Source of the DNA: Minisyncoccota bacterium
GTDB lineage: Bacteria; Patescibacteriota; Minisyncoccia; Phycocordibacterales; UBA5272
NCBI GenBank assembly: GCA_018063165.1
Contig: JAGOQU010000002.1
Location: forward strand, 77,471 to 141,470
Length of the DNA: 64,000 nt
Direction of reading: 5' to 3'
Shown one piece after another: positions 46,700-63,019 of the stretch. The notes under the pieces are model-generated. The model was not told the origin of the DNA. It searched no databases and saw nothing but the letters and a program-made list of their open reading frames with translations. The translations under genes were made by a program, and so were the position numbers. How positions within the stretch are numbered: the first letter of the stretch is position 1; every line of letters begins with the position of its first letter.

Positions 46700-47275
46700 A
46701 TGAAACAACAACGAATTACAATTAGTGTGTCAGGTGCAGCAGAAATTGCTCATTGCGGTCCTACAGTTATTCCTATAGCAAAGGAACTAGGGCGTGAGAT
46801 CGCTCGCCAAGGGTGTCAAATTATTACTGGTGCAACAAGTGGTTTTCCAATGTATTCTGCAGAAGGCGCAAAAGAAGCTGGTGGTTTTTCTTTTGGTCTT
46901 TCTCCTGCAGCTAGTAAAAAAGAACATTTGGAAGTGTATCGTCTCCCATTAAAAGCAATGGATACTGTTATTTATACAGGATTTGGTTTCCCTGGACGTG
47001 ACCTTATGCTTATACGGTCGTCAGACGCTGTTGTTGTCGGCTGTGGACGAATTGGGACAATTCATGAGTTTACTGTTGCCTGGGAGGCAAATATGCCTCT
47101 TGGTGTGCTTACAGGGGAGTGGGCAACAGATGAAGTAATACAAAATATCATTAAAAATAGTGGTAGAACTAATCCAAATGTTGTCTTTGAAAAAGATCCA
47201 AAAATAATGATAGAAAAGCTTATTGAAATGGTAAGAAAACAAGAAGTGAATGGCGAAAGAGAAATGAGATTATAA
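46700..47275 (+). CDS. TIGR00725-like Rossmann-fold protein (LOG/SLOG superfamily)
   Basis: ITGATSGFPMYSAEGAKEAGGFSFGL and VVGCGRIGTIHEF resemble the LOG-family and TIGR00725 patterns. Confidence 0.4.
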   Translation: MKQQRITISVSGAAEIAHCGPTVIPIAKELGREIARQGCQIITGATSGFPMYSAEGAKEAGGFSFGLSPAASKKEHLEVYRLPLKAMDTVIYTGFGFPGRDLMLIRSSDAVVVGCGRIGTIHEFTVAWEANMPLGVLTGEWATDEVIQNIIKNSGRTNPNVVFEKDPKIMIEKLIEMVRKQEVNGEREMRL

Positions 47276-50070: not shown

Positions 50071-50152
50071 TTTAGTAATAAAAAGAAAGAACGATGGCAT
50101 GCTCATTTCATTTAAAGTGGAAGGTTGGTACATTGAAATGTGAGTAGAAATT

Positions 50153-50235
50153 CGGGCACATGCTTGACCAGAATTTGAGAAGTTAAAAATACTTTCGGAG
50201 TGTAGTATTGGGTTTAGTGAGTGGTTGAAGAGGGG
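50153..50235 (+). repeat. copy A of an approximately 83 bp dispersed repeat
   Basis: About 85 percent identical to 51912..51993. Shared core CGGGCACA...CCAGAATTTGAGAAGTTAAA...ATTGGGTTTAGTGA.TGGTTGAA. Confidence 0.6.
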
Positions 50236-51405: not shown

Positions 51406-51850
51406 ATTAATGCTAAATTATTATATATTAGTAATAATTGTACCATGTTTCCCTAGTCTTATTCTAAGTTATTAAATTTTGTAAATAGGTTAGTAAAACT
51501 AAAATTCAACAGGAAAAGTTTATTTTAGTTGTTTTTAAAATAAAATATAAGCAGTGTGTACACATTATGGACACCCAATCCAAATTACAACTCGAAAAAC
51601 TTTATTGTTTAGCTATTTTTGCTACAAATACGACTAACTTTTATAATACGATAAAGGTGGGCTTCATCGGTCACCGCTACGGATCGCTTTGAAAAGCTTT
51701 GCTTTCCTCATCTCGGCACGTAGCCTCGACCCCGAGAAAAACCGACAAAATTATTTCTAAAAACACTGAACCCAGTTTTTGGAAATAATTGTGTAGACGG
51801 TTTTTCGTTTGATTCCGACATAAGTCAGTTTGAAATGACTTATTCCCATC

Positions 51851-51907
51851 TCTACAGAAATAAATTAAACCGCATCAATTGATGCGGTTTAATTATTTCT
51901 GTGGAGA
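51851..51907. repeat. long imperfect inverted repeat with perfect 24 bp palindromic core
   Basis: TCTACAGAAATAAATTAAACCGCATCAATTGATGCGGTTTAATTATTTCTGTGGAGA. The core AAACCGCATCAATTGATGCGGTTT is a perfect palindrome. Confidence 0.6.
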
Positions 51908-51911
51908 TAAA

Positions 51912-51993
51912 CGGGCACACGTCGAACCAGAATTTGAGAAGTTAAAGATAGTATCAGAGTATATTATTGGGTTTAGTGATTGGTTGAAAAAAG
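51912..51993 (+). repeat. copy B of the approximately 83 bp dispersed repeat
   Basis: See copy A. Both copies lie just 3' of minus-strand genes, at 50248 and 52017. Confidence 0.6.
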
Positions 51994-52016: not shown

Positions 52017-52994
52017 TTATTTAATTCTAATCATCCTTCCGTTTCCTGGAATTGGATTTCCTTCTTTATCTTTTAAGGTGCCCCACTCATCCCATTTGTT
52101 TGCAATTTCTGGTGGAATTAATTTCGCCCATTTTTTCCAATCTTTATCACCATCAGGGGTTACTACATAGACACGTTTAAGCTCATCTGCTTCCCAGCCA
52201 TTCTTTTTAACAAGATTTCCTGTATGTCCTTTCTTTCCATTGATTTTATTTAAAATCATTAATGTTTTATCCCAACGTTTAACATCTACATTTTTTAGAA
52301 AACGTGCCAACTGACCGCCTTGCATAAAAGGTACATTTTCAAACGAATTTAAATTTTTCCAAATAGTTTCCTTTGCTTCTGAAATAGTTAAACCACTTAG
52401 CCCCTTCACACTGTTTTGAAGTTGTATCCCAACAGATTGAGTCATTTTGTCATTTAAAAATTCATCCACAGTGTTATAGCTAAGAGCTAAAGAAAACCAA
52501 CACAAAAGATTATCTTTTCTATACGTATCTTCATTTTGATTTTCAGCAAGAATATCTGTATCATAACTATATTCAGTATCCCTCTTTTCGACCTTAACAG
52601 AAACAAATGTTGGCAGTCCTCCAATTTTGGAATTGTACCCTACAGCATTTTTTAAATAATTAATCATACCAGCACCAGAATCAGCAACAAAAACACCAGC
52701 ACCATCGGGGGTATTATCATTACCAATATTTTTTATATCGAGTTTTTCTTTTGGTTTTAGACCGTTAGCAAGAATACTATCAATAATTCCCCCTCCTTCT
52801 CCAGTTAAAGTTCCATGCCAGTAATATTCGGCTTTCGGCATTCTTTCTAAGTTAATCTGAGGAGTTTCGATGTTTTTAGTTTCAGGTGATTCGACGAGGT
52901 ATTTTTCATCCTGTTCTTTAGGGGAGAGCTTTTGTGCTTGTTTTTTATCCCTAGTTTCTGTTTTATTTTCTGGTAATGATTCTAGTGTTGTCAT
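52017..52994 (-). CDS. PARP/Tpt1 (KptA)-fold ADP-ribosyltransferase-like protein
   Basis: YYWHGTLTGEGGGIIDSILANGLKPKE and GAGVFVADSGAGMINY align to the PARP catalytic signature (LLWHGS..N..GIL..GL and G.GIYFAD...S..Y). They also align to Tpt1/KptA (LYHGT ... GL ... HYVHLSAD). A low-complexity N-terminus and about 150 aa of C-terminal extension of unknown function. Confidence 0.45.
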   Translation of the reverse strand: MTTLESLPENKTETRDKKQAQKLSPKEQDEKYLVESPETKNIETPQINLERMPKAEYYWHGTLTGEGGGIIDSILANGLKPKEKLDIKNIGNDNTPDGAGVFVADSGAGMINYLKNAVGYNSKIGGLPTFVSVKVEKRDTEYSYDTDILAENQNEDTYRKDNLLCWFSLALSYNTVDEFLNDKMTQSVGIQLQNSVKGLSGLTISEAKETIWKNLNSFENVPFMQGGQLARFLKNVDVKRWDKTLMILNKINGKKGHTGNLVKKNGWEADELKRVYVVTPDGDKDWKKWAKLIPPEIANKWDEWGTLKDKEGNPIPGNGRMIRIK

Positions 52995-53185
52995 ATTGAA
53001 TAGTATAACTCTTTTTTTAGAAATAAATAGTTGGAGGAATCGGTCACAAAACTACCTCGCTTTGCTCGAAGTAGTTTCCCGACCCGTATTCGATTCCGCC
53101 GAAAGCCAAGCAGTTGGCTTTCTCCTTTTCCTCACTGAAATATAAAAATACCCCTAGGGTTACCTAAGGGTATTTTTATATTTAG

Positions 53186-53575
53186 TGGAGGTGGGCGGAA
53201 TCGAACCCCCGTGTACTAAGGTATGATGCATGGGTCTACTGTACGTAGTTTGCTTATATGTGTTCGCATGCATTATAGAAAACAAACGAAAACAATGAAT
53301 GTATAGCATGAATTATTTCAATAGTAATGCTATGCAACATTACAATCTACTTCCACTGTTATATTGCCCAGACTTTTTCCGTGGTTACGAAAAAGAAGGA
53401 CACCCGGTCGGCCAGTATTTAGGCGAACGCAGGAACTAGACCAAACGCGTATGGCGATGGAATAGCCTTACCAGTTGTTTTTGCAACATGGGCGCTCTAA
53501 CGTTAACGAGTGCTAGAGCAGTCTCGGTACAGCGCATACAACATATTCTTAGTGTCAAAGCCAAAGATCACCCCC
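53186..53575 (-). ncRNA. ssrA: tmRNA (ssrA)
   Basis: Minus-strand 5' end GGGGGUGAUCUUUGGCUUUGACAC resembles tmRNA 5' ends (GGGGCUGAUUCUGGAUUCGAC). The 3' end has a T-arm GGGGGUUCGAUUCCGCC and acceptor CACCUCC pairing with the 5' GGGGGUG, then A/CUA. An internal ORF begins at a GCA resume-like codon and encodes AKTTGKAIPSPYAFGLVPAFA followed by stop. smpB is adjacent. Confidence 0.7.
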
Positions 53576-53655: not shown

Positions 53656-54090
53656 CTATTTGCTTTCACGTAGTTCTCTACGTGCTATATCTTTTTTGAT
53701 ATCTTCTCGTTTATCTCGAGAATCTTTTTTCTTGCACACTGCAACATCACATTTGATGAGGCCATGTGCATCGTACAATGAATTAGGAGCAAGTGTCAAG
53801 GTTTTTGATTGTTCTTTTTGAAAAAGTTCTGTGATCTCTGATTTTTTAAGGAGTAATTTTCGTGTTCTGTAAGCATCATATGATTTTGGAGTATTAGATG
53901 CTTGATAGGGTGGAATGTACACACCAACCAAAAAAGCTTCACCACCGCGAATAAGAACCTTTGCTCCGTCTAGTGACCCTTGTTTTTTTCTGAGTGCTTT
54001 TACTTCAAAACCAAAAAGCTCAATACCTGCTTGATATGACTCTTGTATTACATGTGTAAGGTGAAGTTTTTTACTTTCTATTAATTTCAT
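53656..54090 (-). CDS. smpB: SsrA-binding protein SmpB
   Basis: EVKALRKKQGSLDGAKVLIRGGEAFLVGVYIPPY ... YRTRKLLLKKSEI matches SmpB (GTEVKSLR ... ISPY ... RTRKLLL). Confidence 0.85.
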   Translation of the reverse strand: MKLIESKKLHLTHVIQESYQAGIELFGFEVKALRKKQGSLDGAKVLIRGGEAFLVGVYIPPYQASNTPKSYDAYRTRKLLLKKSEITELFQKEQSKTLTLAPNSLYDAHGLIKCDVAVCKKKDSRDKREDIKKDIARRELRESK

Positions 54091-56841: not shown

Positions 56842-57000
56842 TACGCACTTCTCCTTATAGTTAGACTTTTTTGAAAGATATTAAATACACCTTTCAAAAT
56901 ATATAGTACTCTTTTAGGCTTTTTTGTAAAGTGCTCACAATATAAAAAGCACACTGTCATTTCATGGTGAATATGATATAGGTATATTTTATATACAAAG

Positions 57001-57073
57001 TGCGCCCACCAGGACTCGAACCTGGGACCAGTCGTGTATAAGACGACGGCTCTACCAACTGAGCTATAGGCGC
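57001..57073 (-). tRNA. tRNA-Ile (anticodon UAU)
   Basis: Manual fold of the minus strand. Acceptor GCGCCUA / UGGGCGC, D-arm GCUC-AGUUGGUA-GAGC, anticodon stem GUCGU / ACGAC with loop CUUAUAC (U33, A37, anticodon UAU), variable loop UGGUC, T-arm CCAGG-UUCGAGU-CCUGG, discriminator A. No encoded CCA. Confidence 0.75.
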
Positions 57074-61036: not shown

Positions 61037-63019
61037 ATGTCAGATGGTGAACATCAAAAAATTACATATCTAGGAAAGATTGATTATCGTGATAAACAGG
61101 TAACTTTTGGTATTAAAGAAAACGACAGAACTAAGCATACCTATATCATAGGTAAATCAGGTATGGGTAAATCAACACTTCTTGAAAATTTAATTATTCA
61201 AGATATTACTGGTGGAGAAGGTGTATGTGTTATTGATCCTCATGGGGCATTAGCAGAAACAATACTTCATTATATTCCAGAATCTCGCATTAAAGATGTT
61301 GTTTATTTTGCTCCTTTTGATGGAGATTTTCCTATGGGTCTTAATATGCTAGAAAAAGTGTCAGCAGAAAAAAGATACTTGCTAGCAAATGGTATGATGT
61401 CTGCGTTTAAGAAAATTTTTACCGACGGTGATGGTAAGGGGACATTTTCTGCACGTATGGAATATGTTCTTAATAACATTATTCTTGCACTTCTTGAAAA
61501 TGAAGGTCAGACACTTCTCGGTGTTAACAGAATGCTTTTTGATAAAGAGTATAGAAAATTTATTGTGAGTAATGTAACAGACCCAACAGTAAAAGATTTT
61601 TGGGTAAATGAATATGCTAATTATACAGACAAAACTGCTCAAGAACTTGCTCCTTCAATACAAAATAAAATAGGTCAATTTGTGTCTAATCCACTTATTA
61701 GAAATATTATCGGTCAAAAGAAAACATCCTTTGATATACGAAAGATAATGGATGAGAAAAAGATTTTTATAGCTAATCTTTCAAAAGGGAAAGTTGGCGA
61801 AGGAAATGCAAATCTTCTTGGTTCTCTTCTTATTACAAAAATATATTTAGCTGCGATGTCACGCGCTGATGTTGACGTGTATGAAGCAAAGAATTTACCA
61901 CCGTGTTATTTTTATGTGGACGAGTTTCAAAACTTTGCCAATGAATCTTTTGCAAGTATTTTGTCAGAAGCTCGTAAGTATAAACTTGCTCTTACTGTTG
62001 CTCATCAATATATAGAACAAATGACAGATGAAGTGAGATCTGCTGTTTTTGGAAACGTTGGCACTATGATTACATTTCGCATTGGTGCAACAGATGCAGA
62101 GATTTTTGAAAAAGAATTTGCTCCTAAATTTGTCCTTGATGATTTTGTGAATCTTTCCGCATATCAAATTTATTTACGTCTTATGATTGACGGTCAGGGT
62201 TCACAACCATTTTCCGCTAGAACACTTCCGTCAACAGAAAGACCTGTACATTCGTATGAACAAGCTGTCATAGCTTATTCACGTTTAGAACATGCAAAGC
62301 AAAAGTTTTTGGTTGAGGATGAGATTATGGAATTTTATAAACCTGTACCAAAAGTAGAAAAAATAAAAACAGAGATACCTTCTCCTGATGTAAAGTTTTT
62401 AAAAGTGAATGAATATAAAAATGAACAACCTTCATATCCATCAAAACGTAATGACAGCTTTAAACGTTTTGATGCTAAGAAAAATAATGAGGAAAGAAGA
62501 TATCAGACATCTCCAATCACAAGATATGATTCTCCTGAAAGAAAAGATGAGAAGCAGAATATTGCTCATTCTTCTGTAGATACTGCACAAGCCGTTGTTG
62601 CTAATTCTGAGCCAACCACAGTTGTTCATAAAGAAAACAATATAGAAAAAAATAACAGAAGAGAAGAACAAAAATATATTCCTGAAATAGAAAAAAAAGA
62701 AATTAAAATTGAAAGTGTGTTTGATACAGTAAAACAACCTGTTTATAAAAAAGAATATGTTGACAAAACAGTAGAACAAAAACCTACTCCAGTTTTTGAC
62801 GATAAGCCAGCAATGTCTCTTAAAGAAGCTCTAGAAAAAGCACTTAAAGATCAAAAGCCAATAACAGAAAATGTGTACCAAAAGAAAGAGGTGACAGATC
62901 AAGAAGATATAAACAATGGTGAGGTAAAAGATAGAAAAATAAAAGAAGACATGCAAGTTTCTTTACCTAAGAAGAAAGAAGTACCAGAAGATGTTCTTCG
63001 AAAATTGATAGAAGAATAA
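61037..63019 (+). CDS. type IV secretion coupling-protein-like (TraG/TraD/VirD4 family) P-loop ATPase with K/E-rich C-terminal tail
   Basis: Walker A IIGKSGMGKST, DPHG, Walker B YFYVDEFQNF and ARKYKLALTVAHQYIEQM match the T4CP patterns (hhhhDE and the A.QS..QL sensor). No N-terminal transmembrane domain. The last 230 aa are low-complexity. Confidence 0.5.
   Translation: MSDGEHQKITYLGKIDYRDKQVTFGIKENDRTKHTYIIGKSGMGKSTLLENLIIQDITGGEGVCVIDPHGALAETILHYIPESRIKDVVYFAPFDGDFPMGLNMLEKVSAEKRYLLANGMMSAFKKIFTDGDGKGTFSARMEYVLNNIILALLENEGQTLLGVNRMLFDKEYRKFIVSNVTDPTVKDFWVNEYANYTDKTAQELAPSIQNKIGQFVSNPLIRNIIGQKKTSFDIRKIMDEKKIFIANLSKGKVGEGNANLLGSLLITKIYLAAMSRADVDVYEAKNLPPCYFYVDEFQNFANESFASILSEARKYKLALTVAHQYIEQMTDEVRSAVFGNVGTMITFRIGATDAEIFEKEFAPKFVLDDFVNLSAYQIYLRLMIDGQGSQPFSARTLPSTERPVHSYEQAVIAYSRLEHAKQKFLVEDEIMEFYKPVPKVEKIKTEIPSPDVKFLKVNEYKNEQPSYPSKRNDSFKRFDAKKNNEERRYQTSPITRYDSPERKDEKQNIAHSSVDTAQAVVANSEPTTVVHKENNIEKNNRREEQKYIPEIEKKEIKIESVFDTVKQPVYKKEYVDKTVEQKPTPVFDDKPAMSLKEALEKALKDQKPITENVYQKKEVTDQEDINNGEVKDRKIKEDMQVSLPKKKEVPEDVLRKLIEE

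Follow-up and report, generated by a model that had tools for sequence, protein, structure and literature searches.

The window analysed here, 64,000 nucleotides of contig JAGOQU010000002.1 from a Minisyncoccota genome, carries at 52017-52994 (minus strand) a gene whose product, judged from a structural model, probably adopts the ADP-ribosyltransferase (ART) fold. We see about an even chance that this protein is an active transferase that stands alone, without a partner, as a divergent H-Y-D-type ART of a new family; its catalysis and its target we infer. The family most likely represents a very rare, previously unclassified and unannotated branch of the known ART superfamily. The gene is a genuine and complete open reading frame (ORF) with an ATG start, and its 325-residue translation is identical to KBC41_01885, a hypothetical protein from a Candidatus Pacebacteria metagenome-assembled genome (MAG). 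Since relatives exist at E <= 1e-10 in a library of 1.84 billion proteins, the ORF is more than a product of chance. Its G+C content (0.31-0.36) is similar to that of its surroundings. The gene and its parts are the following:

52017-52994, minus strand: coding sequence of the ART-fold protein, 325 residues plus stop
52875-52994, minus strand: leader, codons 1-40, disordered, Lys/Glu-rich, outside the family core
52545-52832, minus strand: predicted N-terminal half of the ART core, residues 55-150, from the model and structure comparison
52815-52817, minus strand: codon of His60, on strand 1 (58-63), invariant in 9/9 sequences, the 'H' of H-Y-[E/D]
52656-52691, minus strand: Y-x10-Y element (Phe102 to Tyr113); six of nine sequences have Y at position 102 and the other three F, while all nine have Tyr113
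52554-52562, minus strand: Asp145-Thr146-Asp147, right after strand 142-144, both Asp in 10/10; candidate catalytic acids
52242-52532, minus strand: all-helical segment, residues 155-251, family-specific, spans from the model and the alignment
52020-52232, minus strand: Trp-rich beta/alpha module, residues 255-325, KRVYVxTPxGDxDWxKWAKLIP...W..W...PGxGKxVRIK

Predicted fold

We built an AlphaFold2 model from a 12-sequence alignment, which reached a mean predicted local distance difference test (pLDDT) score of 75 and a predicted template modelling (pTM) score of 0.69, with pLDDT values of 58-90 in the N-terminal half. An earlier note on this DNA, made from the sequence alone, had described a low-complexity N-terminus, and the first 41 residues are indeed Lys/Glu-rich and predicted to be disordered (pLDDT below 50). 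Behind them the model places the core strands 58-63, 100-104, 128-133 and 142-144 and the helices 69-77 and 107-116. At the level of the fold, structure comparison relates the model to the split beta-sheet core of ARTs, which has about six strands and a cleft for nicotinamide adenine dinucleotide (NAD+).

Two structure-comparison methods, covering 48,164 and 350,542 chains, each return almost only ARTs. With Foldseek (350,542 chains), EcPltA and pertussis S1 rank at the top (E 3.9e-3, probability 0.99). The structure-comparison scores are 8.1 for EcPltA/ArtA, 7.9 for DarT1 (141 residues aligned), 7.8 for pertussis S1, 7.7 for heat-labile enterotoxin, 7.5 for Tpt1/KptA, 7.5 and 7.4 for DarTG, 7.3 for CC0527, 7.2 for TreX, 6.6 for Scabin and CARDS, 5.3 for PARP15, 5.0 for RES toxins and 4.4 for Arr. 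We therefore regard the ART fold of the modelled protein as well supported. The earlier note had proposed an ART of the PARP/Tpt1 fold, and its assignment to ARTs at the level of the fold is supported by both structure-comparison methods, whereas profile searches found no such relationship; membership in PARP, Tpt1 or DarT is not supported.

Conserved positions and proposed active site

Residues that are invariant or nearly so in the N-terminal half of the family are W59, H60, G65, G78, P81, N92, T95, [Y/F]102, Y113, L114, K/R115, G126, L127, P128, D145, D147, N162 and W166, among which W59-H60, Y113-L114 and G126-P128 form conserved pairs or blocks. The invariant His lies on strand 1, and Y/F102-Y113 lie on the next core strand and the helix that follows it, separated by exactly 10 residues, the canonical spacing. 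Residue 141, immediately before strand 142-144, is E/D in 8/10 sequences, and the acidic residues 268-271, before strand 272-280, are not invariant.

The motifs from which ART membership had originally been proposed are all present in the protein (WHGT at 59-62, G..D.IL.NGL at 69-79 and GAGVFVADSG...Y at 98-113). Their PARP/Tpt1-like core holds up across the family at H60, [Y/F]102 and Y113, but the exact strings 'HGT' and 'FVAD' are peculiar to this protein, 'FVAD' being variable save for its aromatic residue. The 'GAGVFVADSGAGMINY' segment resembles 'GKGIYFADMVSKSANY' of PARP1. A choice between an H-Y-E and an R-H-R-R catalytic constellation had also been left for checking. We find an H-Y-[E/D]-like set, consisting of H60, the Y-x10-Y element and candidate acids, but not the R-H-R-R tetrad: within residues 1-227, Arg reaches a conservation of >= 60% at no position, and H60 is the sole invariant His. 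The conservation thus fits the diphtheria-toxin/PARP/Arr type (H-Y-[E/D]), to which the family most likely belongs, and neither the cholera/pertussis type (R-S-E) nor Tpt1. From the aligned sequences, the signature would best be written H-[Y/F]-x10-Y...D-x-D, which seems closest in logic to Arr (H-Y-D) and AcrIF11. These positions define the H-Y-E clade (diphtheria/PARP type) and its H-Y-D variant Arr, and AcrIF11 provides a precedent for His/Phe/Asp variants (PMC8120803).

By analogy with ARTs of this type, NAD+ would occupy the cleft that separates strand 1 from the next strand-helix, where His60 would contact its ribose and [Y/F]102 and Tyr113 would sandwich the nicotinamide. The part of the catalytic Glu/Asp, promoting transfer of a single ADP-ribose, could be played by Asp145 or Asp147, or by the mostly acidic residue 141. 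The helical segment (155-251) and the Trp-rich module (255-325) would lie against the core or complete it, and would provide a substrate-recognition surface.

The C-terminal half

For the C-terminal ~150 residues, previously described as lacking any recognisable motif, we likewise found no library match, yet they contain the most conserved part of the family, namely the last 70 residues. Conserved here are N260, L261, G266, P280, G282, D283, D285, W286, W289, A290, W301, W304, G319 and R323. The preceding helical segment is probably an insertion between core strands, as judged from the model.

The beta/alpha module (260-324) is confidently modelled in the full-length prediction. When residues 255-325 are modelled alone, pLDDT drops from ~90 to 75, one strand is lost and no fold match is found. 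We rejected the module as an autonomous domain, and the short, apparently stand-alone proteins P0014 and P0015 are a truncated remnant and a contig-edge fragment, respectively: upstream of P0014 the frame beyond a stop codon still reads 'FLKILNNIK', and P0015 ends at the contig edge. We also rejected a WWE-like identity for the Trp-rich module, which has no Pfam match. In the model, the C-terminal part probably completes or caps the ART core.

Family size and distribution

An exhaustive phmmer search of 1.84 billion cluster representatives yielded 13 relatives (50% clusters), of which 12 pass E <= 1e-10 and 10 pass the stricter limit of E <= 1e-30. Identity to the relatives is 26-62% over the full length or long parts, and 26-53% for full-length relatives. 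A word-indexed search of 5.8 billion proteins gave 3 matches with the sequence, one of which (P0003) covers the leader only, and 6 with the profile. We did not find the family in 185,579 GTDB species genomes (one genome per species), nor relatives among phage records, plasmid records or IMG/VR viral contigs, and a scan of Joint Genome Institute metagenome contigs returned nothing beyond one locus already known.

All loci that carry an organism name belong to Pacebacteria/Paceibacterota MAGs, and gene content suggests that the remaining relatives also come from ultra-small candidate-phyla bacteria. On one contig (L017, 2-1502), a family fragment adjoins a radical-SAM/wyosine (TYW1-like) gene, and another member (L003, 13823-14781) shares its contig with NurA. 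The wyosine and NurA neighbours hint that some members are possibly archaeal (DPANN-like).

The single protein has no match in Pfam, PHROGs, PADLOC, NCBIfam or PDB sequences, even at E <= 10. A Pfam scan of 12 family members gave scattered chance matches and no ART family at E <= 1; the hidden Markov models (HMMs) that the earlier note had suggested checking, for PARP (PF00644), PTS_2-RNA (PF01885) and DarT (DUF4433), match neither the query nor these 12 members. Profiles of the whole family and of the N-terminal domain gave only chance matches to PDB sequences (E > 0.08). We discarded a weak PDB alignment to the His box of USP7, since the catalytic 'GGHY' of USP7 is matched by 'GGLP' in the family.

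Gene neighbourhoods and the absence of a partner

Eight gene contexts were available for the family:

Window: ssrA/smpB upstream; bPH_2 membrane protein downstream
L001: TelA, DUF8128, TrmB
L003: double helix-turn-helix regulator, PLD, NUDIX, Lon, topoisomerase, NurA
L004: two unknown genes
L006: glyoxalase, DUF1801, AHSA1, Fic
L007: unknown genes
L008: ABC permease and binding protein, TrmB
L013: GatB 4 nt upstream, permease, ProRS

An all-against-all BLASTP comparison of the ORFs in these eight loci shows that only the family itself and TrmB regulators are common to loci. The earlier note had suggested looking for a partner antitoxin or macro-domain gene in relatives; none of the eight contexts contains a macro, ARH, NADAR or small antitoxin-like gene, and in the window no immunity ORF lies directly downstream. 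The lack of a conserved partner argues against a DarTG-like toxin-antitoxin pair. As no conserved neighbour would confer immunity, act as an antitoxin or remove ADP-ribose, we consider a substrate that is non-self or dispensable, or tight regulation, likelier than a self-poisoning toxin. Such a substrate could be a small molecule, or else a macromolecule of exogenous origin. The absence of a partner favours a non-self or small-molecule substrate, tight regulation, or a loss of activity.

A strain-variable slot beside ssrA

The surroundings of the gene contain several non-coding elements:

53183-53575, minus strand: transfer-messenger RNA (tmRNA) gene, ssrA, full-length by Rfam (81.4 bits, E 5e-30), a locus marker separate from the protein
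53042-53085, minus strand: structured motif, copy A (GGGTCG-stem-loop-GTGACC), between the tmRNA terminator and the ORF
51900-51988, minus strand: conserved ~89-nt element immediately after the stop codon, repeated at 50141-50229 behind the bPH_2 gene
51863-51894, minus strand: bidirectional hairpin terminator, closing the transcription unit
51669-51732, minus strand: structured motif, copy B, on the other side of the ORF, in direct orientation

The ORF starts 188 nt 3' of ssrA on the same strand, and the gene adjoins structured non-coding DNA, as had been noticed from the sequence: downstream of the gene, positions 51630-51915 hold a series of long, almost perfect hairpins (folding z of -10.9 for the plus strand and -8.5 for the minus strand), which is partly conserved in the related contig L004 (2290-2399). 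The tmRNA gene, upstream of which SmpB is encoded at 53656-54090, appears divergent; it was overlooked by ARAGORN, even though Rfam scores it at 81 bits.

The family core begins near residue 45. The 40 residues in front of it are missing from most members and are confined, within the family, to this protein and its closest relative. Window positions 52875-53020 share a promoter-proximal sequence and the first 37 codons (MTTLESxPENK...KLSPxEQDxKYLVESPE) with positions 1-200 of L002 and of L004, two short contigs of related genomes that begin 86 nt upstream of the leader-bearing ORF. In L002, the leader is fused to an unrelated 400-residue protein (P0003, no family or PDB match), which is followed by a low-molecular-weight phosphatase. 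In L004, it precedes a member of the ART-fold family; the gene of this closest relative (87-1069) is split into two ORFs of 163 and 164 residues by a frameshift or stop near 'AATTCATGATG', and could be a pseudogene or an assembly error. The many synonymous differences in the leader indicate that it is probably translated. We found no known trafficking domain in the ART-fold protein with Pfam.

At its 3' side, the window locus ends, like those of L002 and L004, with the ~89-nt element (TTCAACCAcTCACTAAACCCAATA...TTTAACTTCTCAAAtTCTgGTTcGAC...) followed by a terminator. The copies in L002 (~1748-1835) and L004 (~2200-2290), and further ones in two Paceibacterota MAGs, L019 (two copies, ~2400-2488 and ~1870-1955) and L020 (~1081-1170), follow different genes. 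In Paceibacteria the element is always placed between the 3' end of a gene and a hairpin terminator, and its consensus structure is weak. By eye, its 3' part loosely resembles the 3' end of tmRNA; an integron attC reading was rejected, also by eye, as the R'/R'' consensus is unmatched.

The structured motif reads GGGTCG-[variable stem]-CGAGC.CAGCGAG-[stem]-GTGACCGA, with no occurrence expected by chance, and recurs in L019 (2261-2308) and L020 (101-144 and 269-309). Its stem P1 is invariant and P2 carries compensatory changes in 7/16 pairs. The motif may act as a cis-regulatory RNA or serve in recombination as a site; Rfam contains no family for the motif or for the flanking structured DNA. 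We rejected integration of an island into the tmRNA 3' end, since no second copy of that end occurs within 3 mismatches and no integrase is found nearby.

The sharing of the leader points to gene replacement inside a common 5' leader at this ssrA-adjacent locus, and the ART-fold gene has the appearance of an exchangeable accessory gene, its slot between ssrA and infC varying from strain to strain. This accessory status rests on the rarity of the family, its absence from the GTDB species genomes searched and the presence of different cargo in the same slot of related genomes.

Other features of the window

The wider window contains housekeeping genes (S6, SSB, NDK, beta-CASP RNase, L20, IF3, FtsH, MurB and an RsmI-like gene). 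A tRNA-Ile gene with the anticodon TAT (UAU) lies at 57000-57073; tRNA-Ile with a UAU anticodon is uncommon among bacteria. A SLOG cluster-4 (LDcluster4) protein of a nucleotide-binding family is encoded at 46700-47275, away from the ART-fold gene. A 660-residue TrwB/TraG/VirD4-like type IV coupling protein is encoded at 61037-63019, ~8 kb from the gene, and would offer a possible export route if the ART-fold protein were an effector.

Alternative explanations

Several findings weigh against an active H-Y-D-type transferase. The top structural matches come from the R-S-E clade, and yet the motifs of that clade are missing from the family. Neither sequence nor profile comparison ties the family to any ART, whether with Pfam, PDB profiles or hhalign against an Arr alignment, where the probability is 1%. 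At residue 141, which corresponds to the canonical catalytic position preceding strand 5, two members carry Ala or Met, and the residue after His60 (the Gly of 'HGT') is Ala in 7/9 sequences. Genes of NAD+ or ADP-ribose metabolism are absent nearby, except at one locus (L003), where NUDIX lies two genes away. In addition, the frameshift-split gene in L004 may point to decay in some lineages.

One rival reading is that the protein has the fold and no transferase activity, serving, for example, as an NAD+ or ADP-ribose binder, an NAD+ glycohydrolase or a scaffold. In its favour, the canonical catalytic position is not conserved and the Gly of 'HGT' is usually replaced by Ala; conservation is strongest in the Trp-rich C-terminal module and not at the presumed NAD+ site, and if nothing is modified, the missing reversal or immunity partner is readily explained. 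However, H60, Y113, D145 and D147 are invariant and position 102 is always Y/F, and these are the positions of NAD+ chemistry, whose retention would be unexpected in a scaffold. We consider this reading unlikely.

An Arr-like enzyme that modifies an antibiotic or another xenobiotic small molecule is also not what we expect, at a fairly low probability. Such an ART would be a stand-alone H-Y-D enzyme without need of an immunity partner, and the helical segment could provide its ligand cleft. The invariant acid is Asp and not Glu, the strand-turn-'YDTD' segment resembles 'IVEP..EDDPN' of Arr, the gene is single, partner-less and sporadically distributed, and the copy in L006 sits among genes of glyoxalase/bleomycin-resistance type, DUF1801 and AHSA1. 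Against this stand the hhalign result and the lack of a Pfam Arr match, a protein more than twice the size of Arr, and seven other contexts without a resistance flavour.

Similarly low in our estimate is a reading that starts from the locus, in which the gene is one cargo of an undescribed ssrA-infC cassette-exchange locus in Paceibacteria and encodes a leader-tagged, host-directed effector of an episymbiont. The exchanged unit would consist of the 5' motif (GGGTCG...GTGACCGA), one or more genes, the ~89-nt 3' element and the terminator. Different cargoes would be fused to one promoter plus the 37-residue leader, which would act as a targeting or secretion tag. A host-directed effector would need no immunity gene. 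If this were true, the protein would define a split ART architecture of a new kind, interrupted by a helical segment and closed by a Trp-rich module.

That the protein is not an ART at all, its model being an artefact of a shallow alignment and the motif resemblance coincidental, strikes us as improbable. The alignment does hold only 12 sequences, confidence in the N-terminal half is uneven (pLDDT 58-90) and support at the sequence level is missing, but two structure-comparison methods independently arrive at almost only ARTs, and the invariant His and the Y-x10-Y lie on the very elements that bear them in real ARTs.

Still more doubtful is a Tpt1/KptA-like enzyme acting on RNA ends, by NAD+-dependent removal of a 2'-phosphate or ADP-ribose capping of a 5'-phosphate, in RNA repair or in tRNA or tmRNA metabolism. 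Some neighbours belong to translation or RNA metabolism (ssrA/smpB in the window, GatB 4 nt upstream and ProRS in L013, the wyosine radical-SAM gene in L017), and phosphate binding is conceivable for K115, R274, K288 and R323, which are basic and conserved. In addition, the catalytic Glu is dispensable in Tpt1 chemistry (PMC8120803), consistent with the variable residue 141. Nevertheless, PF01885 has no match, the R-H-R-R tetrad is missing (the N-terminal half has no invariant Arg, and only one His is invariant), strand 2 has Y/F instead of the second His of H-H-h, the winged-helix lobe is lacking, and, as neighbourhoods are not conserved, the RNA context may be coincidence.

A DarT-like or otherwise self-directed DNA- or protein-ADP-ribosylating toxin of a toxin-antitoxin or defence system would suit a variable locus beside ssrA, a classic island site, but is highly improbable given the lack of a DUF4433 or PADLOC match, of a DarG/macro, ARH, NADAR or small adjacent antitoxin gene in all eight contexts and of phage, plasmid or viral relatives, and given that the L013 and L008 genes sit inside housekeeping or transport operons.

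Significance

Many toxins, as well as many enzymes of defence, of antibiotic resistance and of RNA or DNA modification, are ARTs. New ART clades tend to bring new target chemistry, for example DarT, Tre1 and AcrIF11 (PMC8120803). The present family is invisible to current annotation libraries, has an unusual architecture and comes without a reversal or immunity gene. If the H-Y-D-type enzyme is active, its acceptor would add a new ART specificity and might illuminate the interaction of an episymbiont with its host or how these cells cope with small molecules. For now the practical value is modest and consists of an annotation, 'ART-fold, H-Y-D-type, new family', together with a few candidate residues for mutagenesis.

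Comparison with known ART systems

Pertussis-like A subunits (EcPltA/ArtA, 4Z9D; pertussis S1; heat-labile enterotoxin) are R-S-E enzymes with an Arg on strand 1, an STS motif on strand 2 and Q/E-x-E ahead of strand 5. Despite the best structural scores of this clade, the family has none of the cholera/pertussis (R-S-E) motifs: its strand-1 residue is His and not Arg, it has Y-x10-Y where these enzymes have STS, and it shares 6-12% identity with these toxins and lacks both a signal peptide and B-subunit genes. Polymorphic toxins combine a conserved trafficking N-terminus and a variable C-terminus with a downstream immunity gene, and here the 37-residue leader is common to the ART-fold protein and the unrelated P0003; however, most family members lack this leader, and the gene in the window is not followed by an immunity ORF.

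DarT (DUF4433) differs in its C-terminal architecture, and neither the DUF4433 HMM nor the DarTG models of PADLOC match the family. The DarG/macro partner of DarTG is not adjacent in the window or in L001, L003, L004, L006, L007, L008 and L013. Tpt1/KptA (PF01885) and CC0527/DUF952 are set apart by the R-H-R-R tetrad and the H-H-h motif (as defined in PMC8120803), which the family lacks, along with any HMM match in Pfam or NCBIfam. The order of domains differs as well: in Tpt1/KptA, a winged-helix RNA lobe precedes the ART lobe, whereas in our family the ART core comes first, with disordered residues 1-41 followed by ART strands from 58. The PARP catalytic domain (PF00644) shares the H ... Y-x10-Y arrangement with the family, without an HMM match.

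Arr (H-Y-D; PDB 2HW2, 9IBA) is a stand-alone, partner-less ART with the diphtheria-toxin-type fold, as the family appears to be. Sequence and profile similarity do not place the family within Arr. The two have in common a His on strand 1 and, on the core strand after it, a Tyr; the invariant candidate acids of the family are, like the acid of Arr, Asp and not Glu. Their local patterns are alike, with 'HGT' and then a strand, a turn and an acidic 'DxD/EDD'.

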